From assembly GCA_049684675.1 (NCBI GenBank), contig JBAVGF010000308.1, forward strand, positions 1-58,687: 58,687 nucleotides of DNA, given 5' to 3'. This document shows, in pieces, positions 24,511 to 47,168 of the stretch. The DNA is from Thermodesulfobacteriota bacterium (GTDB lineage Bacteria; Desulfobacterota; BSN033; UBA1163). Positions within the stretch are counted from its first letter, which is position 1. Each line of letters opens with the position of its first letter. Under the pieces are notes generated by a model, which was not told the DNA's origin, did not search any database, and saw nothing but the letters and a program-made list of their open reading frames with translations. The position numbers were made by a program, and so were the translations under genes.

Positions 24511-24531
24511 CCAGCCCTCCTCCAGAACGCA

Positions 24532-27969: not shown

Positions 27970-29775
27970 TTAGTCGGAAAACAGATCAGGCGTTATTTCA
28001 ACCGTCAATCCGTCGCTGTGCATCAACCGAGAGGCCAAACCCTGAATCTTCGGGAGTTCATACTCAAAGAAAAAACGGAAGACAAAAAATTTACCGTTAT
28101 AAAAATTCGCCTCTGCCCCGGCCGGGCTATTCCTCAAGGCCTTCACCACTGCCGTGGCCTGAAGAAGCCATTGCCAGGCCACACTGATGATTCCAAAGAA
28201 CTCTAAGTAGAGGGTGGCGTCAGCTAAGAAGACTTCAGGAGTTTTCTTTTTTTGCACATCCATCAGATAGGCGGTCACCTGCTGAAGCATTTCCAGCGAC
28301 TGTTTGAGTTTCTGCGCATATGACTCAAGTTCCTTAAATTCTTCGGCTTGACGAGTGGTCTTTTGCACTTCCTCCAGATAGAGTTTGTAGGCCTTGCTGC
28401 CCTTCATCATGACGTTTCGACCCAGGAGGGTTAATCCATGTATACCCGTGGTGCCTTCATGGATCGGATGAATCCGTGCGTCCCGATAATATTGTTCTAA
28501 AGGATAGTCATCGCAGTAGCCCGACCCGCCCAGGCATTGTACGCCCTGGCTGATCGAGAGGATACCCATTTCCGATGGGTAGCTCTTGGCCACCGGAGTC
28601 AGGAGGTCTAACAAAAGCTCGTTTTTTTCCTTTTCTTCTCCGGTGAGAACGATGGCGAGATCGGCATATTTCGCACTCTGCATCAGCAAAGAGAGAGCGC
28701 CCTCTATTACGGAGCGTTGAAAAAGCAACATGCGCTTCACATCCGGGTGTTCGATAAGAGGAATTTGAGGCAGGGTGGGATCCTTGGTTGACAGTTTTCT
28801 TCCCTGAAGTCGCGTTTTGGTATACTCTAAGGCCGCATAATAGGCGGCCGAAGCAATGGCTGCAGCCCCTGCGCCCACCCCGATTCGCGCCTCGTTCATC
28901 ATCTGAAACATAAGAAAGAGTCCTTGATGGGGTTCACCCACCAGGTAGCCTCGGCAGTTGTCGCTGTCCCCCATACTGAGTTGGGCAATAGGACATCCTC
29001 GATAACCGAGCTTGTGAAAAACTCCGGAGGTGGCTACATCGTTAAAAACCAATTGGCCTTTCTCGTCCATCCGCTTTTTGGGTACAACGAAAAGCGAAAT
29101 GCCCTTGACACCGGCAGGGGCGCCTTGGATCTTGGCCAGCATGAGATGAACGACATTTTCGACTCCGTCATGGTCTCCAGCCGATATAAATATCTTTTGA
29201 CCCTTAATCTTATAGTAGCCGTGATCCGTGGGTTCGGCCATCGTGGTAATGTCGGCAAGCGAACTTCCAGCTTCGGGTTCGGTTAGGGCCATGGTTCCCT
29301 GCCACTTTCCTGCAAGCATCTTGGGAAGATAGGTTTTCTTCAGGTCCTCTTTTCCAAAGTTTAGAATGAGACGGGCGGCTCCTGTAGTCAACCCGGTATA
29401 GGCCGCAGCGGAATAATTCGCTGCACAAAAAATGAATCTGGACCCCATGGTGATCATTTGAGGAAGCTGCTGCCCTCCCCACTCGAAAGGGATATCGTCC
29501 CCAATCCAGCCACCTGTGCCGGATTCCTCTAAAAGCTTTTTTACCGAGGAGTGAACCTTGATGTGATCACCCACCAATTCCGGGGGATTCTTGTCCATTT
29601 CCTGACAGATAGGCCAAAGAAGCCCCTCGGCCAGTTCCATCGCTGCCTTTAAGACCATATCAAGCATTTTGCCATCGTATTCTTTATAGTATTCGTATTG
29701 GGTCAGCGAGGCGACATCAAAGACTTCATGAAGCAAGAACTTCAAATTCCTTTCGCTGACAAACTTGGATGCCAT
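27970..29775 (-). CDS. Long-form acyl-CoA dehydrogenase
   Basis: 601 aa. Acyl-CoA dehydrogenase blocks include YRDARIHPIHEGTTGI (the conserved catalytic-Glu 'YEGT' region). An extended C-terminal helical domain is typical of ~600-aa FadE-like enzymes. Confidence 0.85.
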   Translation of the reverse strand: MASKFVSERNLKFLLHEVFDVASLTQYEYYKEYDGKMLDMVLKAAMELAEGLLWPICQEMDKNPPELVGDHIKVHSSVKKLLEESGTGGWIGDDIPFEWGGQQLPQMITMGSRFIFCAANYSAAAYTGLTTGAARLILNFGKEDLKKTYLPKMLAGKWQGTMALTEPEAGSSLADITTMAEPTDHGYYKIKGQKIFISAGDHDGVENVVHLMLAKIQGAPAGVKGISLFVVPKKRMDEKGQLVFNDVATSGVFHKLGYRGCPIAQLSMGDSDNCRGYLVGEPHQGLFLMFQMMNEARIGVGAGAAAIASAAYYAALEYTKTRLQGRKLSTKDPTLPQIPLIEHPDVKRMLLFQRSVIEGALSLLMQSAKYADLAIVLTGEEKEKNELLLDLLTPVAKSYPSEMGILSISQGVQCLGGSGYCDDYPLEQYYRDARIHPIHEGTTGIHGLTLLGRNVMMKGSKAYKLYLEEVQKTTRQAEEFKELESYAQKLKQSLEMLQQVTAYLMDVQKKKTPEVFLADATLYLEFFGIISVAWQWLLQATAVVKALRNSPAGAEANFYNGKFFVFRFFFEYELPKIQGLASRLMHSDGLTVEITPDLFSD

Positions 29776-29996: not shown

Positions 29997-30938
29997 TCAG
30001 ACGGGCTTGAATGCCTCCAGGCCTTCGAGGAAGTCGAGCATCTTGAGGTAGAGAAGATCTCTCTTTCTCAGAATCTCTTCTTCACTCCGTCCGCCATAAT
30101 CATAAATGCCCTTAGAGGTACTTGCACCTAAATGTCCCTGTCTCACCTTTTCTTCGATGAGGGGGTTTTCCGTTGCTGTGCCCTTCGTCATGTCATGGAT
30201 CAAATTGAGTCCGGTAAAATCCAAGCTCTGGACGACGCCCACGATGGGCAGCCGTATTCCGAGACTGGTCTTCACAGCTAAATCGATCTGCTCAGGAGTG
30301 GCCCAGCCGTTCGTAATCATTTCCAGGACAGTTCTGACAATCGCATTCTGGACCCGGTTGACGATGAAGCGCTGAACGAATTGCTTCATGACTAGGGGTT
30401 TTTTGCCGATCCTCTCCATCAATCCTGCGGCAAATTGCAGAACATCGGGAGTGGTCGCCGGTCCGGGAACCACTTCCACCAGGGGAATGATATGAGGGGG
30501 GGCAAACCAGTGGGTGACCACAAGACGGGAAGGATTTTTGACCTCTATGATTTTGAAGATCTCCAGACCTGAGGTGTTACTGGCTAGGACCACGTTTTCG
30601 GGGCATGTGGCTTCCAATTGCGCAAAAACTTTCTTCTTGACTTTGGGAATTTCGGCTACTGCCTCAAGAACGAAATCCACTTCCCTGACTGCAGCGGCCA
30701 GGTCTATCGTCGGACGGATCCGGTCCAGAATTGCCGGGATCTTCTGAGGACTCACCCGTCCGCAATCGGCCAGGGTCTGCAGATTCGACTTCACCAATTT
30801 GAGCGCATGAACCAGAAGGTCATTCTTTAAATCAACCAACTGTACCAGAATGCCCGCCTGGGCGAAGACCTGGGCGATGGAATGGCCCATCACTCCAGCC
30901 CCGATCACAGCGACCCGTTTAACATTTTTGGGATCCAT
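29997..30938 (-). CDS. 3-hydroxyacyl-CoA dehydrogenase (Hbd/FadB NAD-binding type)
   Basis: N-terminal Rossmann VAVIGAGVMGHSIAQVFAQAG. 313 aa with the typical NAD-binding plus C-terminal dimerisation domains. Confidence 0.85.
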   Translation of the reverse strand: MDPKNVKRVAVIGAGVMGHSIAQVFAQAGILVQLVDLKNDLLVHALKLVKSNLQTLADCGRVSPQKIPAILDRIRPTIDLAAAVREVDFVLEAVAEIPKVKKKVFAQLEATCPENVVLASNTSGLEIFKIIEVKNPSRLVVTHWFAPPHIIPLVEVVPGPATTPDVLQFAAGLMERIGKKPLVMKQFVQRFIVNRVQNAIVRTVLEMITNGWATPEQIDLAVKTSLGIRLPIVGVVQSLDFTGLNLIHDMTKGTATENPLIEEKVRQGHLGASTSKGIYDYGGRSEEEILRKRDLLYLKMLDFLEGLEAFKPV

Positions 30939-31045: not shown

Positions 31046-31090
31046 GTCACATGTCGAATGCTGTACCTTGAATTAGAGGTAATTGCAGGT

Positions 31091-31124
31091 TACAATATAT
31101 CATACAAATTCTATGTATATTGTA
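31091..31124. promoter_or_regulatory. AT-rich palindrome, candidate operator upstream of Fdh/Hdr cluster 1
   Basis: TACAATATA (31091-31099) and TATATTGTA (31116-31124) form a perfect 9-bp inverted repeat, with inner CATA/TATG arms. It lies 51 nt upstream of the mvhD-1 ATG. Confidence 0.4.
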
Positions 31125-31174: not shown

Positions 31175-31642
31175 ATGGGCGGCCTGTTTAAACCTATCAT
31201 CCTTGCTTTCTGTTGCCATTGGTGAAGCTATGCAGGTGCTGATCTCGCCGGTTCGGCGAGGCTAAAATACGCTGCTAATGTCTTGCCTATTCGTGTCATG
31301 TGCAGTGGGAGAATATCTCCTCACTTCATCCTCAAGGCTTTCCAGGAAGGGGCGGACGGTGTCTTGATAGCGGGCTGCCATATTGGGAGCTGCCATTATG
31401 GAAAGGGTAATTACATCACGGCCAAGAGAGTGGCGGTGATAAAAGACCTCCTTGGATTTGTTGGCCTTTCTCCTAAACGATTGAGGCTGGAATGGATTGC
31501 AACTTCCGAAAGCAATAAGTTTGCTAATGTCGTTAGTGATTTTACCCGGGAGATTAATGAACTCGGTCCTTCCCCTCTGAGGAAGCTGTCCTTAAAGAAA
31601 AAACCGGAGCGAATGAAGGAACAGCTTGCGTCGCAGCCATAA
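31175..31642 (+). CDS. mvhD: MvhD/FlpD-like [2Fe-2S] electron-transfer protein, selenocysteine-containing (U17)
   Basis: ATG 31175 is in the same frame as track ORF 31283..31642, joined through TGA 31223-31225. It reads [80 protein letters not shown], matching the MvhD blocks FCCNWC.Y.GADLAG, RVMCSGR and GCH.GDCHY. No clear RBS. Confidence 0.8.
31223..31260 (+). other. UGA (Sec) codon plus SECIS-like hairpin
   Basis: TGA 31223-31225, then CTCGCCG-GTT-CGGCGAG (7-bp perfect stem) at 31244-31260. Confidence 0.7.
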
Positions 31643-31650
31643 AGGAATCG

Positions 31651-32457
31651 ATGGATAAGACCAGAGAGAAGATGGCGAGAATGTTGGATGAGGCAGTGGT
31701 CTCCGGAATATTGGGCCTGGGACTGAGACATCGTCATCCTGTCCCTTATCTCTTCACGGATTCAGCCTCTTTGAAGGATTGGGTTGTCGGTGAGACCGAA
31801 CGATATCCCATCACTAAAATTCTCATTCGGATCGCAAAAAAACACCCCGACGAAACCTTTGGGGTTGTGGTCCGGGGATGCGAAGGGCGATCCTTGATCG
31901 AGCTTTTTAAAAACCATCAACTTCGCTCCGAGAAGATAAAGGCGATCGGGATCGTTTGCAGTCAAGAATTGGCAAAACGATGTCGGTGTGATCGGCCGTT
32001 TCCTTCGGAGATGGAGGAGGGCGAGCTGGCCAAACCGATAGAAGACCTCTCTGACATTGCGGAGGTTGAGAGCCTTCCAGAGGAAGAGCGATTTCAATAT
32101 TGGATGAAGCAGTTCGGGAAATGTATCAAATGCTATGGATGTCGTAACGTCTGCCCGGCTTGCTTCTGTCCTGTCTGCACATTGGAGGACCCTTCTCTGA
32201 TCAAACCAGGTGGAATGCCTCCCGAAATTCCAATCTTCCATCTCCACAAAGCTTTTCACATGGCTGACCGGTGCATTGATTGTGGCCTCTGTGAGGAAGC
32301 ATGCCCGATGAGTATTCCGGTGAGAAGGCTCTATCGGAGAGTCCGTAAATCGGTGAAGGATCTTTTTGGATATGTCCCGGGTGAAAAGGAGGATGAGAAA
32401 GGTCCTTTGGAGTTTTTGGGAGACGGCAGTTATGAGCTACCCGGCGCTGGAAGGTGA
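31651..32457 (+). CDS. Iron-sulfur protein with two CxxCxxCxxxCP-type clusters (AsrA/FrhB-C-like; putative Fdh electron-transfer subunit), copy 1
   Basis: 268 aa with CIKCYGCRNVCPACFCPVC and CIDCGLCEEACP motifs. It is a paralogue of 47169..47966 (shared blocks ETF.V..RGC.(E/G)R.L.ELFK and FH(L)..A.HM..RCIDCGLCEEACP) and sits in the same position between mvhD and fdhA. Confidence 0.7.
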   Translation: MDKTREKMARMLDEAVVSGILGLGLRHRHPVPYLFTDSASLKDWVVGETERYPITKILIRIAKKHPDETFGVVVRGCEGRSLIELFKNHQLRSEKIKAIGIVCSQELAKRCRCDRPFPSEMEEGELAKPIEDLSDIAEVESLPEEERFQYWMKQFGKCIKCYGCRNVCPACFCPVCTLEDPSLIKPGGMPPEIPIFHLHKAFHMADRCIDCGLCEEACPMSIPVRRLYRRVRKSVKDLFGYVPGEKEDEKGPLEFLGDGSYELPGAGR

Positions 32458-32486
32458 GTTCAAATGTTGAGACGGTTCAACAGGTG

Positions 32487-32640
32487 GGTGGGCATCCAAA
32501 GTTTTAGAGAGCGATCATTACTTAATTTAATGGATAATCATTGTTGTCGGTTGCAGGTGTGTGTGAAAAATATGTCGGGGCTTCTGAACCCATTCATTCG
32601 AAGGTTCCGCTCTAAAACTTTTTCAGCCCACCGCCTTTTT
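32487..32640 (+). repeat. Long-range inverted repeat / structured element between the Fe-S gene and fdhA-1
   Basis: GGTGGGC (32487-32493) and AAAGTTTTAGAG (32498-32509) pair perfectly with CTCTAAAACTTT (32610-32621) and GCCCACC (32626-32632). They enclose ~100 nt and are followed by TTTTT (32636-32640). The arm sequence resembles that of the element at 48008-48173. Confidence 0.55.
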
Positions 32641-32673
32641 CCGGGACCTTTAAATGCAACGGATGGATAAGCC

Positions 32674-34731
32674 ATGCTGAGTTACGAGACCATTCTAACG
32701 ACTTGTACATACTGTGGTTGCGGTTGTGGCCTTCTTCTCGAGGTCCTCGATGGAGAGGTGGTGGGGACTCTCCCGCAAAAGGATCATCCCGTCAGTGAGG
32801 GGAAGCTTTGCATTAAGGGATGGAATGCCCACGAATTCATCCATGATCAGGGAAGACTGAAGGAACCTCTTTTGAGAAAGGACGGCTTGCTGAAAAAGGC
32901 ATCTTGGGAAGAGGCCTTTGATGAAGTCGCTTTTCGCCTCAAGAGAATCAAGGAAGAAAGTGGGTCAGATAGCATCGCAGGTTTGACCTCAGCCAAATGT
33001 ACCAATGAGGAGAACTATCTTTTTCAAAAGTGGATGAGAGCAGTGATCGGGACAAATAATGTGGATCACTGTGCTCGTCTCTGACACTCCTCCACGGTGG
33101 CTGGTCTAGCCAAATCATTTGGAAGCGGGGCCATGACCAATGCGATTCCGGAGCTGGAAGATTCGGACTGTATCTTAATCACAGGGTCTAACACGACAGA
33201 GGCCCATCCTCTTGTGGCGAGCCGGATCTTGAAGGCAAAAGAAAAAGGTGCGAAGTTGATCGTTATCGATCCAAGAAGGACACAAATGGCCCGTTACGCC
33301 GATGTCTTTGTTCGGCAGCGATTAGGCACCGACGTCGCATGGATCAATGGGATCATGCACATCATTCTTAAGGAGGGGTGGGAGAGTAAAGAATTCGTCG
33401 GAGCCCGTACCGAGGGATTCGATGAACTGAAGAGGGAGCTTGAGAACTATCCTCCGGAAAAGGTCGAAGAGATCACCGGTATCTCGAAAACCGATTTGAG
33501 GGAGATTGCTCGAACCTTTGCGAAAGCTAAAAGGGGGAGTATCGTATATGCGATGGGAATCACCCAGCATGTAACGGGAACCGACAATGTTCTCTCTCTT
33601 GCCAATTTGGCAATGCTCACCGGGAACATTGGAAGGCTGAGCACAGGCGTCAATCCCCTTCGGGGTCAGAATAATGTCCAGGGTGCCTGTGACATGGGTG
33701 GGCTTCCCAATGTTTATACGGGGTATCAGAGTGTGGCCGATGAGGGGGTGGCCAAAAAATTTGAGGAGACCTGGAATACGCGTCTTTCGAGGAAACCCGG
33801 TCTCACCATGATGGAGATCTTTCAGGCCATCGATGAAGGAAAAGTAAAGGCACTCTACATCATGGGTGAAAACCCGCTGGTGAGTGACCCGGATCTTCAT
33901 CATGCGGAGAAGATTTTAAAGAAATTGGAACTGCTGGTTGTCCAGGACATCTTCCTCACAGAAACCGCCAAGATCGGCCATGTCGTTCTTCCGGGGGCAA
34001 GCTTTGCAGAGAAGGAAGGAACCTTCACTTCTACGGATCGCAGGGTTCAGAGGGTTAGAAAGGCGATTGAACCGCTGGGAAAAGCGAAACAGGACTGGCA
34101 GATCATTTCCAGTATTGCCCAGAAAATGGGGGCTCGGGGTTTTGAGCATTCTTGCCCTGAGGAAATCTTCGACGAGATGAGAAAGCTTACTCCTATTTAT
34201 CAAGGAATCACATACGAGAAGGTAGAGAAAGATGGAGTTCAATGGCCCTGTCGAACTCCTGAGGACAAGGGAACTTCATTCCTTCACAAAGATCAGTTCT
34301 CAAAAGGTAAAGGATCCTTCTTCCCGGTCCCGTATCGGGAGCCTGCGGAACTGGTCGATGAAGAGTTTCCTTTCTGGCTGACTACAGGAAGGATGGGTTT
34401 CCACTATCATACAAGGACGATGACCGGAGTTTCTCCATCTTTGCAGAAGGAGGCAGAGGAGGGATTTATGGAGATCAATCCCTTCGACGCCACCCGCCTG
34501 GGAGTTCAAGAAGGGGAGCGGGTAAGAGTCATTTCTCGAAGGGGTGAGATTGAGACCAAGGTGACGTTAACGTTCAGCGTTGGTCGAAATGTCGTCTTCA
34601 TTCCCTTCCATTTTGTTGAAAGCGCGGCCAATGCTTTGACGAATAGAGCCTTCGATCCTGTGGCGAAGATCCCTGAATATAAGGTTTGTGCCGTCAAAGT
34701 GGAGAAGATCGAAGAAAGGATAAATGCCTGA
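32674..34731 (+). CDS. fdhA: Formate dehydrogenase catalytic subunit (Mo/W-bis-PGD), selenocysteine-containing, cytoplasmic type, copy 1
   Basis: Track ORFs 32674..33084 and 33097..34731 share one frame and join through TGA 33082-33084. The junction [30 protein letters not shown] matches the FdhH/FdhA CAR(V)UH..SVAG active-site context. N-terminal [4Fe-4S] motif CTYCGCGCG. No twin-arginine signal. Confidence 0.9.
33082..33112 (+). other. UGA (Sec) codon plus SECIS-like hairpin
   Basis: TGA 33082-33084, then TGGCT-GGTCT-AGCCA at 33098-33112. The GGUC-containing loop resembles that of the E. coli fdhF SECIS. Confidence 0.65.
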
Positions 34732-37700
34732 TGTCAAGAGTCGGTGTTTTTGTCTGCCACTGAGGAACGAATATCGCGTCCGTGGTTGACGTGAAGGCAG
34801 TGGTGGAAGCAGTCAAAGAATTTTCAGAGGTGGCTTATGCCACGGACCTCCCCTATACGTGCTCCAGCCAGGGGCAGGGAGTGATCAAGGACGCCATCCA
34901 AAAGCATCGTCTGGATCGAATAGTCGTTTCGTCCTGCAGCCCGAGGATGCATGAGATTACTTTTCAGCGGTGTATCGAAGCCGGAGGACTGAACCGGTAT
35001 CTCTTTGAAATGGCCAATATTCGAGAGCAGGTCTCCTGGGTGACCTTGGATAAAGAAGAGGCGACCCAGAAAGCAATCCGGTTGACAGAGATGGCTATCT
35101 CAAAGGCTTCACAACTTCAATCCCTGACACCGCTGAAATCTCCCGTAGAAAAACGCGTTTTGGTAATCGGAGGAGGTATCTCCGGCATTCAGGCTGCGCT
35201 GGACGTTAGCCTAGCAGGATACAAAGTCACTCTCGTGGAAAAACTTCCAACCCTGGGTGGGCGGATGGCCCAGCTGGAGAAAACTTTTCCGACCCTCGAC
35301 TGCTCTGCCTGAATACTTGCGCCAAGGATGACGGAGTCATCCAACGATGAAAATATTGAGATTCTTACCTACTCTGAAGTGGTCGATGTGAAGGGCTATG
35401 TGGGCAACTTCGATGTGACCATCCGAAAGAAACCCCGTTATGTGGATATGTCCAAATGCACAGCCTGTGCAGATTGTGTCAGCCAGTGTCCGGTCTCCCT
35501 TTCGAGCGAATTCAATCTGGGACTCGGAAAAAGAAAAGCGATCTATCTTCCTTTTCCCCAGGCGGTTCCTCTCAAATATACGATCGACCGACGCGGCACG
35601 CCTCCCTGTGAAGCTTCCTGCCCGATTCACGTCAATGCTCAGGGATACATTGCTCTTATCTCGGCGGGAAAGTTCGAAGAAGCCCTGGCACTGGTTAGGG
35701 AGAAGAATCCATTTCCGGGCATTACGGGTCGAATATGCACCCGTCCTTGCGAGGGAGCTTGCCGGAGAAAGGAAGTGGATGAATCGGTTGCCATTGACGC
35801 CCTGAAGCGTTATCTCTCAGACCATGACGAAAATGGGAAGATCAATGTTCCCATGCCTGAAGAAAATGGGAAGAAAGTAGCTATTGTAGGATCAGGGCCT
35901 ACTGGTTTGCTCGCGGCCCATGACCTGAGAAAGAAGGGTTACGGTGTCACCCTCTTTGAGGCTCTTCCCGTAGCCGGAGGGATGCTTGCCGTTGCCATAC
36001 CTGAATACCGGCTGCCTCGTACGATCCTGAACAAAGAGGTCGAATATCTTCTTGGAATGGGCGTTCAGTTAAAGCTCAATACCCCGATTGGCCCAGGCCT
36101 CTCCTTGAAAGACCTCAAAACTCGGGGGTATCAAGCCATCTTTGTCGCGACAGGGGCCCATCGGAGCAGAAAGCTTGGCCTCGAGGGAGAGAGTGCCCGA
36201 GGTGTCATCCATGCTGTCGATTTTCTAAAAAGAGTGGCTCTTGGTGAATCGGTGAAAGTAGGAGAGAAGGCGATTGTTGTTGGAGGGGGCAACGCAGCGA
36301 TTGATGCAGCGAGGACTGCGCTTCGTCTCGGTTCACGGGAGGTCACAATCGTCTATCGCCGAACCCGCAACGAAATGCCCGCTCAGATCGAGGAGATTGA
36401 AGAAGCCGAAGAGGAAGGAATTAAGATGGAGTATCTCACCGCTCCAACGCGACTGATCGTTGAAGAGGGAGCTGTTCGAGGAATAGAGTGCTGCCGGATG
36501 GAATTGAAGGAACTGGATGAATCCGGCCGACCCAGACCTGTGCCCATTCTTGGCTCTGAGTTTAGAATCGAAGCGGATACGATCATTCCTGCGATCAGCC
36601 AATCGCCTGATCTGTCTTTCCTTTCCGAAACGGATGGTTTCAGGATGTCCCCTTCGGGAACCATTGAAGCCGACGCTCTCACCCTTGAGACGGGTGTGGA
36701 AGGAATCTTTGCGGGGGGCGATCTGGTAACCGGTCCGCAGACATATATCGATGCCATGGCTGCGGGTCGAAAGGCAGCCATCTCCATTGACCGCTACCTC
36801 AAAGGAGAGGATCTGAACGAGGGCCGAGAAAAGGAAGGGACTCAGAAAGATTATATTCAAATCGATGTCGACGGAGTCGAATACCGAGAGAGGGCCTCCG
36901 TGGTGACCCTCCCCCCCGAAAGGAGAAGAAGAAGCTTTGACGAGGTGAACGCCGGCCTTCGAGAAGACGACGTGATCCGGGAGGCAGAACGCTGCCTCAA
37001 TTGCGGAGGATGCTCAGCCTGCGGAGAATGTTCAAAGTACTGTCAGCCCAAGGCCGTGGATTATGAGATGAAGGAGGAATGGGTTGAACGTAAAGTCGGA
37101 GCCATTATCGTTGCGACCGGCTTTACCCAGTTCGACCTTCGGATGTACGGAGAATATGGCGGAGGCCGCTTCAAGGATGTGATTACAGGTCTTCATCTGG
37201 AAAGAATGCTCGATAGTACGGGGCCTACCGGAGGCCATGTGATTCGGCCTTCCAATGGCAAGGAGGCGAAGCATATCGTCTTCATTCAGTGTGTCGGATC
37301 CAGGGACGAATCAAAAGGCGTTCCCTACTGTTCCAGGGTCTGCTGTATGTACACAGCGAAACAGACGATCCTTCTCAAAGACCATTTTCCAGAGAGCCAA
37401 TCGTATGTTTTCTATATTGATATACGGGCAAGCGGGAAGAATTACGAAGAGTTTGTCAAGCGAGCCCAACGGGAGTATGGAACGATCTATATTCGGGGGA
37501 GGGTTTCAAAAATTTATGAAAAAGGTGACAAGCTCATTGTCCGAGGGGTAGATACCTTAGTGGGAAAACAGGTGGAGGTTGAGGCCGACTTAGTCGTATT
37601 GGCCACCGCTGTCGTTCCCCAGGCCAGTGCCTCAGAGTTGGCGAGGCTCTTGAACATTCCCTCTGATCAATATGGTTTTTATACGGAGTGCCATCCCAAA

Positions 37701-38120
37701 CTTCAACCTGTCGAGGTGGTGACCAAAGGGATCTTCCTGACCGGTTCCTGTCAGTTTCCAAAAGATATTCCTGAATCCATCGCCACGACAGGTGCTGCCT
37801 CGGTCAGAGCCTGTGAGATTCTCTCCAAGGACGAATTGGTTCTCGACCCGAGAATTGCTTTTGTGGATGAGGAGGTCTGTAGCGGTTGTCTCAATTGTGT
37901 TGGAGTCTGCCCCTTCAAAGCCATCCAACCCAAAGAAGTTGAGGGGAAGATCGTTGCGTACGTCCTCCCTACGCTCTGTCACGGCTGCGGAAATTGTGCG
38001 GCCACCTGCCGGACAAGCGCTGCCAATGTCCAGGGGTTTACCGACGACCAGATCAACGCCCAAGTGGCTTCGGTCTTCGAGGTTCTCAGAAAGGAGCACC
38101 TCCTTGAGCTATCTGAATGA
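34731..38120 (+). CDS. hdrA: HdrA-like flavoprotein with an inserted GltD/NfnB-like NAD(P)H-oxidoreductase module (HdrL-type), two selenocysteines
   Basis: ATG 34731 overlaps the fdhA stop (TGATG). The gene uses one frame through TGA 34761-34763 and TGA 35310-35312 into track ORFs 34782.. and 35328..38120 (1129 codons). It reads MSRVGVFVCH-U-GTNIASVVD... and ...EKTFPTLDCSA-U-ILAPRM, matching the HdrA blocks IGV.ICHCG.NI and [15 protein letters not shown]. The GltD-like insert is at about 35589-36985. Confidence 0.85.
34761..34794 (+). other. UGA (Sec) codon plus SECIS-like hairpin
   Basis: TGA 34761-34763, then a 7-bp stem TCGCGTC/GACGTGA (one G-U pair) with loop CGTGGTT at 34774-34794. Confidence 0.55.
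35310..35342 (+). other. UGA (Sec) codon plus SECIS-like hairpin
   Basis: TGA 35310-35312, then GGATGAC-GGA-GTCATCC (7-bp perfect stem) at 35326-35342. Confidence 0.7.
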
Positions 38121-38661
38121 AAAGGGGATTCACGGCTTTAAGGATCGGATACTGAAGCTGAGCGGTGAGGATGTCTCCCGGTGCACCCAGTGCGGAAAAT
38201 GCACTGCCGGATGTCCGATCTCTCCAGAGATGGATCTTCAGCCGAATCAGGTGATTCATCTGATCCAAATCAATGACCCGGAAACCGTGCTCCGATGCCG
38301 AACGATATGGCTCTGCGCTTCTTGTCAGACCTGCTCTGCTCGATGTCCGGACGAGATCGATGTCGCACAAATTATGGATTCACTGAGAAAATTGGCAGTG
38401 GAAGAAAAGGTTTCAATCGGTGAGGGAAACGGAATGAAATTTAATGAGTTCTTTCTCGATTCGATTCGGAAGAGGGGGCGTGTCAACGAAATGGAGATAT
38501 TATTGCGTTATAATCTGGCCACCCATCAGCCCTTCAAAGATTCTCATCTGGGACTGGTGATGCTCGCCAAAAGGAAGTTAAGTTTTTCAAACCGTAAGAT
38601 TAAGGGAGTGGGTCTGATCAAAGAGATCTTTAAGAATAGTAGGCGATTCATTAAGGAATAG
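38104..38661 (+). CDS. hdrC: HdrC-like iron-sulfur subunit
   Basis: CTQCGKCTAGCP and CASCQTCSARCP motifs. Probable TTG start at 38104 with AAGGAG 7 nt upstream, overlapping the hdrA end. The upstream ~104 codons of track ORF 37792..38661 lie inside hdrA. Confidence 0.8.
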   Translation: MSYLNEKGIHGFKDRILKLSGEDVSRCTQCGKCTAGCPISPEMDLQPNQVIHLIQINDPETVLRCRTIWLCASCQTCSARCPDEIDVAQIMDSLRKLAVEEKVSIGEGNGMKFNEFFLDSIRKRGRVNEMEILLRYNLATHQPFKDSHLGLVMLAKRKLSFSNRKIKGVGLIKEIFKNSRRFIKE

Positions 38662-38665
38662 CGCC

Positions 38666-39523
38666 ATGCGGGTAGGATATTATCCAGGTTGTTCCCTTGA
38701 GAGCAGTGCAAAAGAGTTTGATCTCTCCCTTAGGGCGATCTTTGAGGTGATGGAGATATCTCTGCAGGAGATCCCCGACTGGAACTGTTGTGGAGCAAGT
38801 CCGGCTCACTCCCTCAATGAAGAACTTAGTATGGCCTTGCCTTACAGGAACTTGGTGAAGGCTGAAGAGGCCGGTTTAAGGAAGATTCTATCTCCTTGCC
38901 CTGCCTGCTATAGCCATATGAGACACACCCATGAAAAGGTAGCACTGGACCGTTCTCTTGGAGATCGACTTCAGCAGATTGTGGGAAAGGGATATCAAGG
39001 AAGTTCGGAAGCGAAGCATCTTTTGGACTTCATCAAGGAGGACGTCGGACTGGGACAATTGAAGTCGAGCATGAAGCGTTCTCTCAAGGGATTGAGAGTA
39101 GCCAGCTATTACGGGTGTCTGACACGGCTGCCCGGAGTAAACTTAGACGATGTTGAGAATCCGGTGATCCTAGATGAGATCGTGGGAGTCCTTGGAGGAA
39201 AATCACTTGACTGGTCTCATAAGACGGAATGTTGTGGGGCAAGTCTTTCATTGACACAGACAGAGATTGCCCTCAGGCTGGTCCGCTCTATTTTAGAAGC
39301 AGCTGAAGAGAAAGGAGCAGAGTGCATTGCCGTTGTTTGTCCCCTTTGCCAATCCAACTTAGATGCCCGACAGGGCGTCGTCTATAAGAACAAAATGCCC
39401 ATCTTCTACATCACGCAGTTAATCGGGTTAGCTCAGGGACTTGGCTATGCCAAGCTGGGGCTGGACGGACTGATCGTAAGCCCCCGTGACCTCCTTCGGA
39501 AAAGAGGGATCATCGAAAAATAG
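38666..39523 (+). CDS. hdrB: HdrB-like subunit (two CCG domains)
   Basis: 285 aa with YYPGCSL...NCCGA and YYGCLTR...ECCGA repeats, characteristic of the duplicated CCG domain. Confidence 0.85.
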   Translation: MRVGYYPGCSLESSAKEFDLSLRAIFEVMEISLQEIPDWNCCGASPAHSLNEELSMALPYRNLVKAEEAGLRKILSPCPACYSHMRHTHEKVALDRSLGDRLQQIVGKGYQGSSEAKHLLDFIKEDVGLGQLKSSMKRSLKGLRVASYYGCLTRLPGVNLDDVENPVILDEIVGVLGGKSLDWSHKTECCGASLSLTQTEIALRLVRSILEAAEEKGAECIAVVCPLCQSNLDARQGVVYKNKMPIFYITQLIGLAQGLGYAKLGLDGLIVSPRDLLRKRGIIEK

Positions 39524-39773
39524 AACCAGCCAACAGTGGATCCTCACAACTCATCAGTTAAGCTTGCAGTTGCAAAAAAACATTTCTAAAGGCGGTTAGG
39601 TGTGCTGAGAAAGCCTTACAGCGGAACCTTTTAGCAGTTTGCCACTATGCTTCCAACCACATTACAAAAGCCACATTGGGCGAAATTGCATATTACCCAT
39701 AAGAAATAGTAAAGAACCGGTTGGTAAGGGTTTTAGAAGTACACTCAACCGCCTTCTTATTGCAACATTAAGG

Positions 39774-40619
39774 TTAGATATCGTCAACGAGACTCCTGAT
39801 GACCTTCATATTTTTCAGGTCTTCGACAGTATCCTTCCTCGGGGTTTCCATAATCCCGGGGAGGTGCCTTAACAAAAGATGGTTGACCAGATTTCTAAAC
39901 CCTTCTAGTCCGATATATCCCTCACCAATATGCCAATGTCGATCTTTTCTCGACCCCAAAGGAGTCTTTGAATCGTTGAGATGGAGGAGATGGAGTCGTT
40001 TCAGGCCAATCGTTTGATCGAATTTTTCCAGGGTCCTATCCATTCCATTTTTATCAGAGAGGTCATAGCCCGCCTCGAAAGTGTGGGCGGTGTCGAGACA
40101 GACCCCCATTCTTTGATGGTCGTGAACTCCCTCTATGATTTTCTTGATCTGATCAAAGGTGTATCCGATCTCCGTCCCTTGTCCTGCCGTATTCTCCATG
40201 AGGAGAATGACCCCATTCTTCACCTTTTCAAAGGCCTGATCAATCCCCTGTGAGACGGCGTCAATGGCTTGATCTTCTGAGGATTCCATCCGGTGACCGA
40301 TATGCATGATCAGGTATTGGGCTCCCAGTTGTTCCGCCCTTTGAAGGTCTGTGGCGATGGAATGGATTGACCGTTTGTAGAATTTTGACTTGGAGGAAGC
40401 AATATTGGGTAGGTAGGGCATGTGGAGAAAGATGGGGAAAAGGACAGGGGATTGAATAGATGACCGGAATGCTTTTACCTCCCTCTTCTTCAGGGGAGAA
40501 TATTTCCATCCCCTCGGGTTTCTGGAGAATAACTGGATGGTTTCGCAGCCTCTGACATGGGCTCTTTCAACCACCTTTGAAAACCCTCCGGCAATGGAAA
40601 TATGGAACCCAAATCGCAT
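39774..40619 (-). CDS. nfo: Endonuclease IV (AP endonuclease, TIM-barrel)
   Basis: MRFGFHISIAGG, ENTAGQG and HLNDSK..GSRKDRH blocks align with E. coli Nfo. Confidence 0.88.
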   Translation of the reverse strand: MRFGFHISIAGGFSKVVERAHVRGCETIQLFSRNPRGWKYSPLKKREVKAFRSSIQSPVLFPIFLHMPYLPNIASSKSKFYKRSIHSIATDLQRAEQLGAQYLIMHIGHRMESSEDQAIDAVSQGIDQAFEKVKNGVILLMENTAGQGTEIGYTFDQIKKIIEGVHDHQRMGVCLDTAHTFEAGYDLSDKNGMDRTLEKFDQTIGLKRLHLLHLNDSKTPLGSRKDRHWHIGEGYIGLEGFRNLVNHLLLRHLPGIMETPRKDTVEDLKNMKVIRSLVDDI

Positions 40620-40824: not shown

Positions 40825-42597
40825 ATGTTCCTCAGGGTTTCTTTATACATTTCGTCGGTCATTTTTCTGCTCGGTCTGATTTATAAGGTGGCCGGCTGGT
40901 TCCGATACAGGATCGGGATAAGGGCAGGAGAGATTTCAACCTTCACAAGGGTTCTTTCTGCCGTCAAGGGAATCCTCTCCACACTTTTCAGCGCCAAAAT
41001 TCTTACTCTGTTGAAAGTCTTTGTTCTCGATGTACTGCTTCAATTCAGGATATTGAGGGAGGACTTTCTCAGATGGATCATGCACATTTTTATCTACGGC
41101 GGTTTCATGCTTCTCCTCCTGATGCATGCCTTGGACAAAACCATCACCGTTGCCCTATGGAAAAACTATTACCCCACGGTCAATCCCTTTATGTTTTTGA
41201 GAGATCTATTCGGCGCCATGGTCATCGTTGGAGTGATCATTGCGATTTATCGCCGATTCATCTTGAAGGTGCCCCGGATGTTCAGCAATGCGATGGATGT
41301 TTATGCCATCCTCATCGTGGCCATCATTATGTTTTCCGGTATCTTTTTAGAAGCCACCAAAATGGTTGCCTATTCCGATTATAAGAGGATGGTGGATGAA
41401 TATTCTGGTTTGAGTGATCCCCAAGAGCTCAAGTCTTTGGAAGCCTATTGGGTGAAGGAATTCGGAGTCGTTTCCCCAAATTTGAAAGGGCCCTTTGATG
41501 AAAAGATATTAGGGAAAGGCAAAAAATTGCATCAATCGAGTTGTGAAGGGTGCCATGCCCGGCCCCAGTGGGCATTTACCGGTTATGGAGCGGCCAAGAT
41601 CATCAGCCCTATCGGTCTTGGCATTGACAGGGCCCGTCTGCCCAGTGTGCTTTGGTACATCCATGTCTTAGCCTGTTTGGCAGGTCTTGCTTATCTTCCC
41701 TTCAGCAAAATGTTCCATATCTTTGCCAGTTCGATAAGCCTCCTTGCCAATGGAGTAATCGGAAAAGAAAAATTGGCTCCAGCGAACAGAGCCACTCTCC
41801 AAGCGATGGAGCTGGATGCCTGCACGCATTGCGGAACCTGCAGTTTGAGGTGTTCGGTGATCATGGCCTTTGAAGAAATTGCGAATATGAATATTTTCCC
41901 TTCTGAAAAGATCGCCTCCCTCCAGGCGCTTGCCTCTGGTAAGAAATTGAGCCCGCAGGAGCTGGGGCATATTCAAGAGGGGGTCTATCTCTGTTCCAAT
42001 TGCTACCGTTGCACGGTGGTCTGTCCGGCAGGGATCAACCTTCAGGATTTGTGGTTTAGCGTCAGAGAGACTCTTCTTCAGAAGGGATACCCAGAAGTTC
42101 TCGTTCTCTCTCCGCTCTCTTTCTACCGTGGTTTAATGAAGGAAGAAACGGTTCCGAGAGATTACGAGAAGCCCTTGATCCAGGCGAGAGAGGCCATTGC
42201 CGCTCGATGTGATTTGATGAAGAGGAAGGATAAGGTCTTGCCTCTGACGTCCACGAATAGACAATTACAGAGCGGGCTCAATCTTTCTGCCCAGGCAAAG
42301 ACCTTCTCGGCTTGCTTTGGCTGTCAGACCTGTACGAACGTCTGTCCTGTGGTGGGCAATTATGAAAATCCTCAGGAAGCCCTTGGGCTGCTGCCTCACC
42401 AAATCATGCATGCGGCTGGTTTGGGCTTGAGGGATCTTGCCTTTGGGTCAAATATGCTTTGGGATTGTTTGACCTGTTATCAGTGTCAGGAACAATGTCC
42501 GCAAGGGGTCCACGTCACGGATGTGCTTTACGAACTAAAGAATTTGGCGGTCAAACGAGCGAGGGAGGAGATCCTGCAGCCCGTGGGAAGAAAATAA
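40825..42597 (+). CDS. Membrane cytochrome-b-like (NarI/DsrM/HdrE-like) domain fused to two HdrC-like 2x[4Fe-4S] modules, with a CXXCH motif in the large extracytoplasmic loop
   Basis: 590 aa with about six TM helices in aa 1-300. His pairs lie inside TM helices (MHIFIYGGFMLLLLMH; IHVLACLAGLAYLPFSKMFH). CEGCH is at aa 240-244 (nt 41542-41556). These are followed by CTHCGTCSLRCS / CSNCYRCTVVCP and CFGCQTCTNVCP / CLTCYQCQEQCP. Confidence 0.7.
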   Translation: MFLRVSLYISSVIFLLGLIYKVAGWFRYRIGIRAGEISTFTRVLSAVKGILSTLFSAKILTLLKVFVLDVLLQFRILREDFLRWIMHIFIYGGFMLLLLMHALDKTITVALWKNYYPTVNPFMFLRDLFGAMVIVGVIIAIYRRFILKVPRMFSNAMDVYAILIVAIIMFSGIFLEATKMVAYSDYKRMVDEYSGLSDPQELKSLEAYWVKEFGVVSPNLKGPFDEKILGKGKKLHQSSCEGCHARPQWAFTGYGAAKIISPIGLGIDRARLPSVLWYIHVLACLAGLAYLPFSKMFHIFASSISLLANGVIGKEKLAPANRATLQAMELDACTHCGTCSLRCSVIMAFEEIANMNIFPSEKIASLQALASGKKLSPQELGHIQEGVYLCSNCYRCTVVCPAGINLQDLWFSVRETLLQKGYPEVLVLSPLSFYRGLMKEETVPRDYEKPLIQAREAIAARCDLMKRKDKVLPLTSTNRQLQSGLNLSAQAKTFSACFGCQTCTNVCPVVGNYENPQEALGLLPHQIMHAAGLGLRDLAFGSNMLWDCLTCYQCQEQCPQGVHVTDVLYELKNLAVKRAREEILQPVGRK

Positions 42598-43526
42598 TGG
42601 AATTTGCCTTATTTCTCGGTTGTACCATCCCAGCCCGTCTCAATCAGTACGAATCTTCCTCTAGGGCTGTTCTCAAAAAGCTCGGGGTGGGATTGGTCGA
42701 TATCCGGGAATTTAACTGCTGCGGATATCCCCTGAGGAACATCGACTTCAAAGTATTCCTCCTCTCTTCGGCGAGAAATCTGGCCCTGGCCGAAAAGAAG
42801 AATCTGGATGTGATGACGTTGTGCCAGTGTTGCTACGGCAGCCTCAAAAAGGCAGACTTTCTTATGAAGGAGAATGCTACCTTAAAGAAAGAAGTCAATA
42901 CGACCCTCGAGAAAGAGGGTCTGAAATACGAGGGAAGGAGTGAGGTGAAACACCTCCTCTCCGTTCTTCACAAAGGAATAGGCATCGAATCGATCAAAGG
43001 GAAGATGTCAACGACCTTTAAGGGGCTTCGGATCGCCACCCATTACGGATGCCATGCCCTAAGGCCCAGCCAGGTTGTGGAATTTGATAATCCCCTTGCT
43101 CCTACCCTGTTTGATGAACTGGTTGAAGCGACCGGTGCTGAGAGCGTTGAATGGCAAATGAAACTCGAATGCTGCGGGGCTCCCTTATGGGGAATCAATG
43201 ATCAGCTGTCCATGGATTTGACTTTAAAAAAACTGAAGGATGGCAGGAAATCGGGTGCGGATTATATCTGTGCGGCCTGTCCATACTGCCACATTCAGTT
43301 CGACAAGGTCCAGAAGATGATACTCTCTCAAAGGAATGTGAACCACCCTCTTCCCTCCATTCTCTATACACAGCTTCTTGGCCTGAGCATGGGCGTCGAC
43401 AAGAAGGCCCTTGGATTGGAGATGAACGAGATTCGTATCGGCGGGATTGAAGAATTATTAAAGAGTGAAAGAGATTTAGCCGAGGAGAAAGAAACCAAGA
43501 AGGAGAAAGAATCAACAAAGCAGTAG
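42597..43526 (+). CDS. HdrB-like CCG-domain protein
   Basis: The real start MEFALFLGCTIP at 42597 overlaps the upstream stop (TAATG). FNCCGYP and LECCGAP CCG motifs. Lys/Glu-rich C-terminal tail. The track's start at 42459 is an out-of-context extension. Confidence 0.8.
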   Translation: MEFALFLGCTIPARLNQYESSSRAVLKKLGVGLVDIREFNCCGYPLRNIDFKVFLLSSARNLALAEKKNLDVMTLCQCCYGSLKKADFLMKENATLKKEVNTTLEKEGLKYEGRSEVKHLLSVLHKGIGIESIKGKMSTTFKGLRIATHYGCHALRPSQVVEFDNPLAPTLFDELVEATGAESVEWQMKLECCGAPLWGINDQLSMDLTLKKLKDGRKSGADYICAACPYCHIQFDKVQKMILSQRNVNHPLPSILYTQLLGLSMGVDKKALGLEMNEIRIGGIEELLKSERDLAEEKETKKEKESTKQ

Positions 43527-43556
43527 TTTTTTCGATCGTTGAAGGCAGGAGTCAAG

Positions 43557-46500: not shown

Positions 46501-46586
46501 CTACGTGTCAATCGGCTAGCGCACAGCTCAAGCGTTTCACCAGCAAACAGATCTACGCTCAGATCGACAAGGCCATGGCTGTCTAA
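43557..46586 (+). CDS. hdrA: Tandem HdrA-like flavoprotein (two HdrA units in one polypeptide), one selenocysteine
   Basis: ATG 43557 has AGGAG 6 nt upstream. It shares a frame with track ORF 43803..46586 through TGA 43734-43736. It reads [17 protein letters not shown]...[18 protein letters not shown]. The first unit has CVGSRD..YCSAVCC. The second unit starts at [15 protein letters not shown] and has [26 protein letters not shown] and a C-terminal 2x[4Fe-4S]. Confidence 0.85.
43734..43760 (+). other. UGA (Sec) codon plus SECIS-like hairpin
   Basis: TGA 43734-43736, then CTCGCC-CAAACT-GG(T)CGAG (6 bp with one bulge) at 43742-43760. Confidence 0.5.
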
Positions 46587-46613
46587 ACAAAAAAACGGAA
46601 AAGGGAGTTTTTG

Positions 46614-47045
46614 ATGTCAGAGGAGTTTCGACCCAAGATCATTGCTTTTTTGTGCACCTGGTGAGCTTATGCTGCCGCTGACCTGGCTGGGGTCAGTAGA
46701 ATGCAGTATTCGACATCGATCCGGGTCATTCGGGTGATGTGTGCCGGGACGATATCACCTCATTACGTCCTGAAGGCCTTGCAGGCGGGGGCCGACGGCG
46801 TCTTTGTGGCTGGCTGACGTCTCGGCGAATGTCATTACCAGTCTGGTAATGTGATGGCCAACAAAAGGATGACCTTTTTGAAGAAGTTGCTGGAGTTTTC
46901 TGGCATTCACCCGGAGCGCCTTAGAACGAGATGGGTCTCTTCTGCCGAGGCGGTGGAATTCGTCCATGAGGTTTCAGCGTTTGCGGAGGAGATTAAAAAG
47001 TTGGGGCCGAATCCTTTGAAAGTGAAAGCAAAGGAAGCCGCTTAA
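46614..47045 (+). CDS. mvhD: MvhD/FlpD-like protein with two selenocysteines (U17, U68)
   Basis: ATG 46614 has AAGGGAG about 7 nt upstream. It shares a frame with track ORF 46851..47045 through TGA 46662-46664 and TGA 46815-46817. It reads [79 protein letters not shown]. Confidence 0.85.
46662..46696 (+). other. UGA (Sec) codon plus SECIS-like hairpin
   Basis: TGA 46662-46664, then CTGACC-TGGCTGG-GGTCAG at 46678-46696. Confidence 0.65.
46815..46851 (+). other. UGA (Sec) codon plus SECIS-like hairpin
   Basis: TGA 46815-46817, then CATTACCA-GTC-TGGTAATG (8-bp perfect stem) at 46833-46851. Confidence 0.75.
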
Positions 47046-47052
47046 TAATTAA

Positions 47053-47136
47053 TAAGGTTAAGGTCGAGGTTCAGGCTGAGATTGGGGTAAATTGAAGGTC
47101 GAGGTTGAGGTGATGAATGATTTCCGCTTAACCTTA
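47053..47136 (+). repeat. Intergenic insert with a 10-bp inverted repeat and a 12-nt direct repeat
   Basis: TAAGGTTAAG (47053-47062) is the reverse complement of CTTAACCTTA (47127-47136). AAGGTCGAGGTT occurs at 47060-47071 and 47095-47106. The equivalent mvhD / Fe-S gene gap in cluster 1 is only 8 nt. Confidence 0.5.
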
Positions 47137-47168
47137 GCTTGATCCTAAACCTTAAGTGAAATGAAGGA

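Follow-up and report, generated by a model that had tools for sequence, protein, structure and literature searches.

We analyzed six consecutive genes, mvhD, an fdhB-like iron–sulfur (Fe-S) gene, fdhA, hdrA, hdrC and hdrB, at positions 31175–39523 of contig JBAVGF010000308.1 from an uncultured Thermodesulfobacteriota bacterium that resembles syntrophs (GenBank assembly GCA_049684675.1), whose full 58,687 nt we refer to as the window. An earlier note, made from the sequence alone, had read these genes as an operon for a formate-dependent, electron-bifurcating complex with an NAD(P)H module inside HdrA, and all six were recovered on the + strand at the coordinates that it had given. The first gene, mvhD (31175–31642; 155 aa), encodes a [2Fe-2S] connector subunit (Pfam FlpD, 175 bits) and is followed by the Fe-S gene (31651–32457; 268 aa), which matched only 4Fe-4S models in Pfam, and by fdhA (32674–34731; 685 aa; Pfam Molybdop_Fe4S4, Molybdopterin and Molydop_binding). 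The longest gene, hdrA (34731–38120; 1129 aa), shows the HdrL/type III architecture, with Fer4_20 and Pyr_redox_2 domains embedded at approximately residues 290–680. The last two genes are hdrC (38104–38661; 185 aa), which starts with TTG and encodes a two-cluster ferredoxin, and hdrB (38666–39523; 285 aa), with two Pfam CCG domains.

The six redox genes of the operon

The intergenic spacings are, in order, 8, 216, −1, −17 and 4 nt. The tight packing described in the earlier note therefore holds for four of the five junctions but not for the 216 nt between the Fe-S gene and fdhA, the only loose spacing in the operon. The overlap of the fdhA stop and hdrA start codons (TGATG) lies at 34729–34733, which implies that at least these two genes are translationally coupled. 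The overlap between hdrA and hdrC amounts to 17 nt when hdrC is started at the in-frame TTG at 38104, which has AAGGAG in front of it; the ATG at 38117 lies in a different frame. A weak promoter candidate (TTGAAT-17-TACAAT, 31068–31096, + strand) is located ∼80 nt upstream of mvhD, but since the site counts in promoter and terminator consensus scans of the region equaled those expected from shuffled sequence, the operon boundaries are set by gene spacing only. Searches of the whole window with Rfam (gathering threshold) and for tRNAs returned no match.

FdhA passes the curated cut-off of TIGR01591 (880 bits; cut-off 666). Among solved structures, it is closest to 9t1s_L, an FdhA of the F420 type (E = 2e-242), FdhF of the hydrogen-dependent CO2 reductase (7qv7_S), the Hdr-bound FdhA of Methanospirillum hungatei (7bkb_D) and 1aa6_A. 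An N-terminal [4Fe-4S] motif is present, the active-site selenocysteine (Sec)–His pair and the Arg element LRGQNNVQG are conserved, and both CARL-U-HSS and PLRGQNNVQGACDMG align with 9t1s_L. With a conserved UGA at codon 137 and an N-terminal sequence devoid of a signal peptide, FdhA is, by homology, a cytoplasmic formate dehydrogenase (Fdh) with a Mo/W-bis-pyranopterin guanine dinucleotide (bisPGD) cofactor and Sec137, in agreement with its earlier designation as a cytoplasmic Sec-type enzyme. MvhD additionally matched the NCBIfam VhuD and HdrA2 C-terminal models and, as the product of the first gene of an hdrA operon, has the setting of an MvhD-type [2Fe-2S] connector.

A PDB sequence search related the Fe-S protein to FdhB (whole-protein E = 2e-31): residues 146–251 matched residues 274–377 of FdhB 9t1s_M, and residues 11–108 weakly matched FdhB residues 32–129. 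The ∼140 central residues of FdhB that form the flavin adenine dinucleotide (FAD)/F420 domain are absent, and Pfam FrhB_FdhB had no match in the protein. An AlphaFold model built from 45 homologues (predicted local distance difference test (pLDDT) 80.5, predicted template modelling score (pTM) 0.79) gave strong fold matches only to the ElpB/FdhB chains 8rvu_E and 7bkb_E (E = 3e-12 and 2e-11; template modelling score 0.71–0.72, normalised to the query), with FrhB N-terminal domains coming next. Across the trimmed FdhB family, 15 cysteines are invariant, enough to fill the majority of the four [4Fe-4S] sites reported for FdhB/ElpB (PMC12350162). Judged by sequence and predicted fold, the Fe-S gene (fdhB′) is a derivative of methanogen fdhB that lost the FAD/F420 domain, and its product is best read as an electron wire lacking an F420/FAD site. 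The earlier statement that the operon has no F420-type FdhB is thus right with respect to function but not to ancestry. This identity also corrects automatic labels such as ‘coenzyme F420 formate dehydrogenase beta subunit’. Trimmed FdhB is common in sulfate reducers and syntrophs, with 233 confirmed matches; among the best 80 of these, which were fetched, the usual gene order is tandem hdrA, mvhD, fdhB′, fdhA, as in a second cluster of the window (cluster 2, described below).

HdrC contains two CxxCxxCxxxCP motifs, and both CCG motifs of HdrB are complete (C9-x31-CC-x35-CxxC and C151-x37-CC-x34-CxxC). Methanogen HdrB chains in the PDB matched the window HdrB at 1e-35, and HdrC also matched a methanogen subunit. 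Together with HdrA, the domains and cluster motifs of an HdrABC-like set plus MvhD are complete, as had been proposed. Among the open reading frames (ORFs) of the window scanned with Pfam, no genes for a hydrogenase, DsrC, GcvH, thioredoxin-like proteins or coenzyme M/coenzyme B (CoM/CoB) were found; the lack of hydrogenase genes had already been pointed out.

The mechanical ORF list splits mvhD, fdhA and hdrA because these genes contain four in-frame UGA codons, all on the + strand: MvhD codon 17 (31223–31225), FdhA codon 137 (33082–33084, in the motif CARL-U-HSS), HdrA codon 11 (34761–34763) and HdrA codon 194 (35310–35312). The two HdrA positions align with Cys13 and Cys197 of 5odc_A, respectively. 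In 27 related loci (comparison loci are numbered L001 onwards), UGA or a Cys codon is found at all four positions, with the exception of five distant loci (L022, L023, L025 and L026 among them) that have another residue or a gap. All four TGAs are retained in L001–L005, and those of FdhA-137 and HdrA-194 persist out to L014. At MvhD-17, most other loci encode Cys, and FdhA-137 is UGA in every bacterial locus compared that resembles the window operon (L001–L010, L012 and L014; hereafter cluster-1-type loci) and Cys in the archaeal L018. From this alternation of TGA and Cys, the four codons are read as selenocysteine codons and not as breaks, and the Sec/Cys pairing further indicates that the genes are under selection. 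The call was made from the alignment because folding energies of the selenocysteine insertion sequence (SECIS) regions were uninformative: over the 60 nt that follow a UGA, the minimum free energy was in no case better than that of shuffled sequence (z between −1.3 and +0.2). Each TGA does have a small hairpin 13–38 nt downstream whose loop contains a G, and in this group of bacteria FdhA, HdrA and MvhD (FrhD) are known as selenoprotein families (PMC1794560, PMC2702500).

An NfnB-like module inside HdrA and its origin

HdrA comprises the expected N-terminal cluster, thioredoxin-reductase-like FAD, inserted ferredoxin and C-terminal ferredoxin domains. Since residues 3–287 and 761–1116 align colinearly with residues 5–290 and 293–650 of 5odc_A (E = 1e-204), residues 288–760 (35592–37010, + strand) constitute an insert of 473 residues in place of two. 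The insertion point lies two residues ahead of the second Cys motif of HdrA's own inserted ferredoxin domain, which is consequently split by the module instead of being free. In orthologues without the insert, the junction reads VIDxE(H/N)C-x7-C-x2-C-x3-CP.

The best PDB matches of the insert were the NfnB-like modules of 9bov_A (9e-138), 9n5u_A and the Stn subunit 8oh5_C (1e-113), followed by NfnB (4ylf_B, 7e-106) and GltD (2vdc_G, 7e-68). Compared with the NfnB chains 4ylf_B and 5jca_L, the insert has motifs for two [4Fe-4S] clusters, an FAD-binding GXGXXG motif, and a GXGXXA motif plus YRR for NADPH. The native chain order of NfnB is not preserved: the insert is circularly permuted, such that the N-terminal RRNFEEV…EAQRCLQC of NfnB aligns with its end, RRSFDEV…EAERCLNC. 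As a result, it opens with PPCEASCP and closes with CLNC, that is, a single NfnB-type cluster motif is divided over both ends and lies two residues before HdrA's own CSACGECSKYCQP motif. The close apposition of the split motif and CSACGECSKYCQP makes a continuous chain of clusters plausible, and the junction geometry would fit a domain insertion that leaves this chain unbroken. GGGNAA (GXGXXA) and IVYRR, the nucleotide-binding motifs of the insert, agree with their counterparts in 4ylf_B, an NfnB that binds NADPH, and at the level of motifs they favour NADP(H) as its nucleotide. The extra NAD(P)H module recognized earlier is therefore NfnB/GltD-like with NADPH-type motifs. A gene for an NfnA-like protein was found neither in the operon nor among the window ORFs scanned with Pfam.

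Insert and host have different relatives. The flavin-domain parts of HdrA are 84–90% identical to those of the insert-less orthologues in L003/L004 and 38–52% identical to those of tandem HdrL proteins (P0058/P0010). The insert itself shares 74.7–76.4% identity with the inserts of the same tandem HdrL proteins, 53% with that of another single-unit fusion (P0111) and 46% with a stand-alone NfnB-like gene near the L004 operon. The ferredoxin-domain halves that flank the insert appear remodelled, with 38–61% identity to L003/L004 and ∼47–48% to tandem HdrL. In simple neighbour-joining distance trees, the insert clade fell inside the tandem-HdrL inserts in 200 of 200 bootstraps, and the host HdrA was placed within the clade of insert-less, Fdh-linked proteins. 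Grouping with HdrL is confined to the insert, a pattern that does not fit descent of the whole protein with the described HdrL lineages. The window HdrA shares its junction with the 1482-aa HdrL proteins and with P0111, and one Syntrophaceae assembly (GCA_013388645.1) has both an HdrL of the donor type (P0058) and an Fdh-Hdr operon without the insert (L004). Because the insert nests in HdrL inserts and its host in insert-less Fdh-linked orthologues, the simplest reading of these sequences is a recent transplant, in which hdrA of an ancestor of the window clade received a copy of just the module from an HdrL paralogue. Co-transfer of HdrB or HdrC with the insert was ruled out, as the proteins of the donor operon are only 29% (HdrB) and 38% (HdrC) identical to those of the window. 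The tandem HdrA of cluster 2 was likewise rejected as donor because it has no insert and because the insert of the tandem HdrL that neighbours the operon in L001 is only 51% identical.

Two operons with donor-type HdrL (L029, 6108–15771; L031, 3392–13233) begin with gcvH, which is followed in order by hdrC, hdrB, hdrL, mvhD and genes for FdhB-like, Fer4_22 and FNR-like proteins. Hdr-like systems of sulfur oxidizers have lipoate-binding proteins (PMC6067878), and by analogy gcvH, a lipoyl-carrier gene immediately before hdrCB, suggests protein-bound lipoamide as the thiol/disulfide substrate of the donor-type HdrL complexes. This is a lead only, and it concerns those operons and not the one in the window.

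Conservation of the operon and its surroundings

The order mvhD–fdhB′–fdhA–hdrA–hdrC–hdrB with a single-unit hdrA was found in 22 loci, the window included, mostly in metagenome-assembled genomes (MAGs) of Thermodesulfobacteriota/Syntrophaceae and in one Dehalococcoidia MAG (L039). Co-occurrence of fdhA and hdrABC in relatives had been set beforehand as a test that could refute the operon as a functional unit, and the recurrence of the order in 22 loci bears out the proposed association. Only the window, L001, L002, L032/L033 and L034 carry the insert; identity to the window is 98% for L034, 91% for L001, 87% for L002 and 82% for L032/L033. The operon is insert-less in L003–L014, L035 and L038–L042, and outside the insert the two kinds of operon are 70–90% identical. 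Close relatives are present in samples ERZ27247945, ERZ27247850 and JGI 3300027896. Some further loci (e.g. L044, L070, L102 and L110) have a tandem HdrA with a GltD-like module beside an Fdh arm, so the window is not alone in linking an HdrA that has an NAD(P)H module to an Fdh arm. An insertion of ∼1.9 kb interrupts hdrA of L002 (12629–13948) in the NADPH module's C-terminal linker. It encodes a 439-aa reverse-transcriptase/maturase-like protein (motif YIDDFVV) and probably represents a group II intron.

Recurrent neighbours of the 22 loci are nfo, an acyl-CoA dehydrogenase gene (five loci), NfnAB-like pairs and indolepyruvate:ferredoxin oxidoreductase genes. An NfnA/NfnB-like pair lies directly upstream of mvhD in the insert-less L003 and L005 and in the insert-bearing L032/L033, and indolepyruvate/2-oxoacid:ferredoxin oxidoreductase genes occupy this position in the insert-less L006–L012. 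Genes of these two kinds suggest ferredoxin and Nfn as partners of the insert-less enzyme. Upstream of the window operon, two beta-oxidation genes are encoded on the − strand, one for an acyl-CoA dehydrogenase (27970–29775) and one for a 3-hydroxyacyl-CoA dehydrogenase (29997–30938). The earlier note had mentioned this neighbourhood, and the genes are indeed present, but both are found beside the operon only in L001, and the acyl-CoA dehydrogenase gene alone in L002, which rules out their linkage as a conserved feature. Downstream, and convergent with hdrB, lies nfo (39774–40619, − strand), encoding endonuclease IV (TIGR00587, 273 bits; cut-off 130). The label ‘xylose-isomerase-like TIM barrel’ for this gene was discarded. 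Although nfo also adjoins the operon in L001, L004, L005, L034, L035 and L038, its function is unrelated.

Two related copies of an inverted-repeat element, each ∼150–170 nt long and with the common core AAGGTTCCGCTnTAAnnCTTTnTCAGCnCAC, bracket the fdhA-hdrA-hdrC-hdrB block. Copy 1 (32487–32632, + strand; ∼146 nt) lies in the gap between the Fe-S gene and fdhA and is followed by TTTTT, and copy 2 (39589–39755, − strand) lies in the opposite orientation between hdrB and nfo. L001 has neither copy, and its gap between the Fe-S gene and fdhA is 80 nt; copy 2 is present in L034. A search of the genome collection with the exact 23-nt arm of the gap element returned no match, and relatives were recovered with a degenerate core pattern, which yielded three more copies in other Thermodesulfobacteriota MAGs (L115–L117). 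The five copies have a mean column identity of 76% and form one long hairpin with 12 compensatory pairs. The element had no Rfam match and could be a mobile element resembling miniature inverted-repeat transposable elements or a structured RNA; copy 1 may have arrived as a mobile insertion and might terminate transcription in part.

Beyond nfo, the window contains a second Hdr/Fdh cluster (cluster 2; 40825–50302, + strand). It encodes a membrane protein of 590 aa that contains two HdrC-like ferredoxin domains, and further HdrB2 and a tandem HdrA of 1009 aa (Sec60) that, apart from the missing NADPH insert, is colinear with the 1482-aa HdrL, as well as MvhD2 (Sec17 and Sec68), a paralogous trimmed FdhB (265 aa) and FdhA2 (Sec136). 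Just past fdhA2, and convergent with it, lies a gene for a full-length FrhB/FdhB-family protein (50573–51721, − strand) with Fer4, FrhB_FdhB_N and FrhB_FdhB_C domains, in which the flavin/F420-type domain is thus present. In L034, the region after nfo (7327–14292) instead encodes an HdrC-like protein, HdrA (951 aa), MvhD and the small and large subunits of a [NiFeSe] hydrogenase. A hydrogenase set where the window has the Fdh-type cluster 2 indicates that the downstream region is plastic between near-identical genomes. Elsewhere in the window, the region 16000–27000 has a G+C content of 0.55–0.58 (0.46–0.52 in the rest) and encodes, on the − strand, an oligopeptide ABC transporter and TPR, PD40 and PEGA-domain proteins.

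A candidate NADP(H)-linked Fdh-Hdr complex and its alternatives

The reading that we favour, at a probability of roughly 0.55, is that the six genes encode one soluble, selenium-dependent complex of the Fdh-MvhD-HdrABC type, whose ferredoxin branch would be wired to an NADP(H) module recently copied from HdrL. Its parts correspond to those of the methanogen complex, as had been recognized before: each of the six subunits has its best or near-best solved relatives among chains of the methanogen Fdh/Elp/Mvh-Hdr complexes. In the solved complexes, electrons pass from the FdhB/ElpB clusters to the clusters of HdrA, on to the [2Fe-2S] cluster of MvhD and from there to the HdrA flavin, and the polyferredoxin MvhB docks at HdrA's inserted ferredoxin-like domain (PMC12350162). 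This docking domain is the one that is split by the insert here. Gene content, selenocysteine codons, domain homologies, the place of the insert and the synteny are direct observations, and the unity of the complex, its electron path, its preference for NADPH, its stoichiometry and its direction are inferred. FdhA, with Sec137 and Mo/W-bisPGD, would interconvert formate and CO2, and electrons would travel through the clusters of trimmed FdhB and the [2Fe-2S] cluster of MvhD to the HdrA flavin. One branch would then reach, via HdrC, the pair of non-cubane clusters in HdrB, which would reduce or oxidise a thiol/disulfide couple. The other would enter the inserted ferredoxin domain of HdrA, which normally leads to ferredoxin but may here be hard-wired into the NfnB-like module with its two [4Fe-4S] clusters, FAD and NADPH site. 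The enzyme would thereby couple formate/CO2, NADP+/NADPH and R-S-S-R/2 R-SH, for example as 2 formate + NADP+ + RSSR → 2 CO2 + NADPH + 2 RSH, or the reverse.

Several observations weigh against this reading. An AlphaFold monomer model of HdrA residues 200–1129 was poor (pLDDT 64.5, pTM 0.43). HdrB and HdrC score below the curated NCBIfam cut-offs (146 bits with a cut-off of 345 for the CoB-CoM HdrB, and 61 bits with a cut-off of 160 for HdrC) and hence fall outside the CoB-CoM reductase equivalogs. No conserved thiol carrier (DsrC, GcvH or thioredoxin-like) was found beside the 22 cluster-1-type loci, and the window ORFs scanned with Pfam include no CoM/CoB genes or DsrC, in line with the earlier note. 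The hairpin and T-run in the 216-nt gap could uncouple the transcription of mvhD-fdhB′ from that of fdhA-hdrACB, and the NfnB-type flavin might itself bifurcate. Lastly, the NADP+/NADPH couple has an E0′ of about −320 mV. Given textbook potentials, with formate at −430 mV (PMC5861303), electron flow from formate to both acceptor branches would run downhill under standard conditions, so obligate bifurcation is not required. Coupling would matter only at the low formate concentration and high NADPH/NADP ratio expected in syntrophy. The earlier proposal of a formate-dependent bifurcating complex holds for the parts, but formate oxidation is only one possible direction, and the energetics with NADP(H) differ.

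One alternative keeps ferredoxin as a partner and treats the NfnB-like module as a second bifurcating flavin site, as in NfnAB or Stn. The enzyme would then connect four couples (formate, NADPH, ferredoxin and disulfide), either with NADPH and formate jointly driving ferredoxin reduction or with an Nfn-like function built into Hdr. The insert is indeed closer to the bifurcating NfnB/Stn-type proteins 9bov_A, 8oh5_C and 4ylf_B than to GltD, HdrA has lost neither its C-terminal ferredoxin domain nor either of the Cys motifs in the inserted one, and the NfnAB-like pairs upstream of L003, L005 and L032 point to a recurrent functional link to Nfn chemistry; the same two-site idea has been raised for ANME-1 fusions (PMC9012536). 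However, the NfnA-like partner that provides the high-potential exit of the NfnB flavin is missing from the operon and the scanned window, the operon lacks a ferredoxin gene, and the module sits in the domain at which ferredoxin or MvhB docks (PMC12350162), where it likely occludes docking. We regard a four-couple enzyme as rather unlikely.

The genes could also encode more than one enzyme, with FdhA, FdhB′ and MvhD feeding another Hdr, such as the tandem HdrA of cluster 2, or acting alone, and with the HdrL-like HdrA and HdrCB forming an NADPH:disulfide oxidoreductase. The 216-nt gap with its inserted hairpin and T-run would suit such a division, as would the paralogous mvhD-fdhB′-fdhA set 7 kb downstream and the existence of HdrL-HdrCB operons without fdhA (L028, L029 and L031). 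Against this, translation of fdhA and hdrA is coupled through TGATG, the gap element is a recent insertion that L001 does not have, the full order is kept in 22 loci of Thermodesulfobacteriota and one Dehalococcoidia MAG, and the methanogen homologues are assembled in a single complex (PDB 7bkb); separate enzymes thus seem improbable. Least credible by far is a decayed or misassembled locus, in which the four in-frame TGAs would be pseudogene marks and the unremarkable folding energies of the SECIS regions would be expected. Each TGA aligns with a TGA or Cys codon of orthologues at known redox or ligand cysteines, the frames run unbroken on both sides, and the hairpins with a G in the loop and the membership of all three proteins in known selenoprotein families argue in the same direction. 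A single Fdh-MvhD-HdrABC-type complex with an NADP(H) exit remains the reading that we prefer.

Bacterial Hdr-like complexes are plentiful in syntrophs and sulfate reducers, and relatives of each part of the window operon have been described. The methanogen Fdh-MvhD-HdrABC(-Fmd) complex of M. hungatei (7BKB) and the Elp-Hdr complex of Methanothermobacter marburgensis (8RVU) share all six subunit types and likely the same electron route to the HdrA flavin (PMC12350162). In contrast to these, the window operon belongs to a bacterium, has an FdhB without the FAD/F420 domain, an NADPH module at the ferredoxin exit of HdrA, four selenocysteines, no CoM/CoB context, and HdrB and HdrC below the curated cut-offs. 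HdrL was described in 2009 as a heterodisulfide reductase/glutamate synthase fusion encoded beside mvhD, with fdhB and fdhA at some loci (PMC2702500), and Syntrophobacter fumaroxidans expresses an HdrABC/HdrL cluster that includes MvhD and an FdhB-like Fe-S protein (PMC5947623). The HdrL systems of Desulfobacterium autotrophicum HRM2 and S. fumaroxidans (Sfum_0819–0824) have the HdrA/GltD-like fusion, mvhD, an FdhB-like gene and Sec in common with the window, and mvhD and an FdhB-like Fe-S gene also share a cluster in L028, L029 and L031. The host of the module differs, being a single-unit HdrA of the Fdh-linked clade and not a tandem HdrA or a P0111-type lineage. Moreover, fdhA directly precedes and overlaps hdrA in the window, whereas donor-type operons have gcvH, Fer4_22 and FNR-like genes instead.

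Insertion of a GltD/NfnB module into the ferredoxin domain of archaeal HdrA was reported in 2022 and 2025 as a ‘repurposed ferredoxin site’ that arose in independent events (PMC9012536, PMC12054007). These type III HdrA/HdrA-NfnB fusions of ANME-1 and Bathyarchaeota carry the module inside the ferredoxin domain, as in the window, but are reported with GXGXXG (NAD type) and not with GXGXXA plus YRR (NADPH type); the window case is also bacterial, with an identifiable donor lineage of the insert. Bacterial HdrBCA-MvhD-FdhBA clusters, for which formate-driven bifurcation was proposed in 2017 in Chloroflexi and Desulfobacula (PMC5736913), resemble the window in that a Sec-containing FdhA is encoded with mvhD, hdrA and hdrBC (Chloroflexi DscP3, Desulfobacula toluolica Tol2). 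Their gene order differs and no NAD(P)H insert was reported there; the Dehalococcoidia L039 does share the window order. NfnAB and StnABC have the two [4Fe-4S] clusters, the FAD- and NADPH-binding fold and the motifs in common with the insert, which lacks an NfnA partner and is permuted and embedded in HdrA. With HdrL, type III HdrA and bacterial Hdr-MvhD-Fdh clusters already published, the window is a particular combination and no new class of system. What appears unusual, by sequence comparison, is the recent copy of an NADPH module in the ferredoxin site of an Fdh-linked HdrA, with a traceable donor lineage.

More speculatively, and in our view doubtful as yet, the operon could place two bifurcation-competent flavins in series, so that a syntroph would interconvert formate, NADPH and a thiol/disulfide carrier directly, bypassing free ferredoxin and NfnAB, with the module acting as a mobile cassette that moves between Hdr paralogues and is clasped by its split Fe-S motif. 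If true, cassette exchange would be a natural plug-and-play way of re-specifying the low-potential partner of bifurcating enzymes. Independently of this idea, the locus documents domain-level exchange between paralogous bifurcating enzymes, and the Fdh-MvhD-HdrABC operon with and without the module represents a natural experiment on the inserted ferredoxin domain of HdrA as a switch of low-potential specificity.

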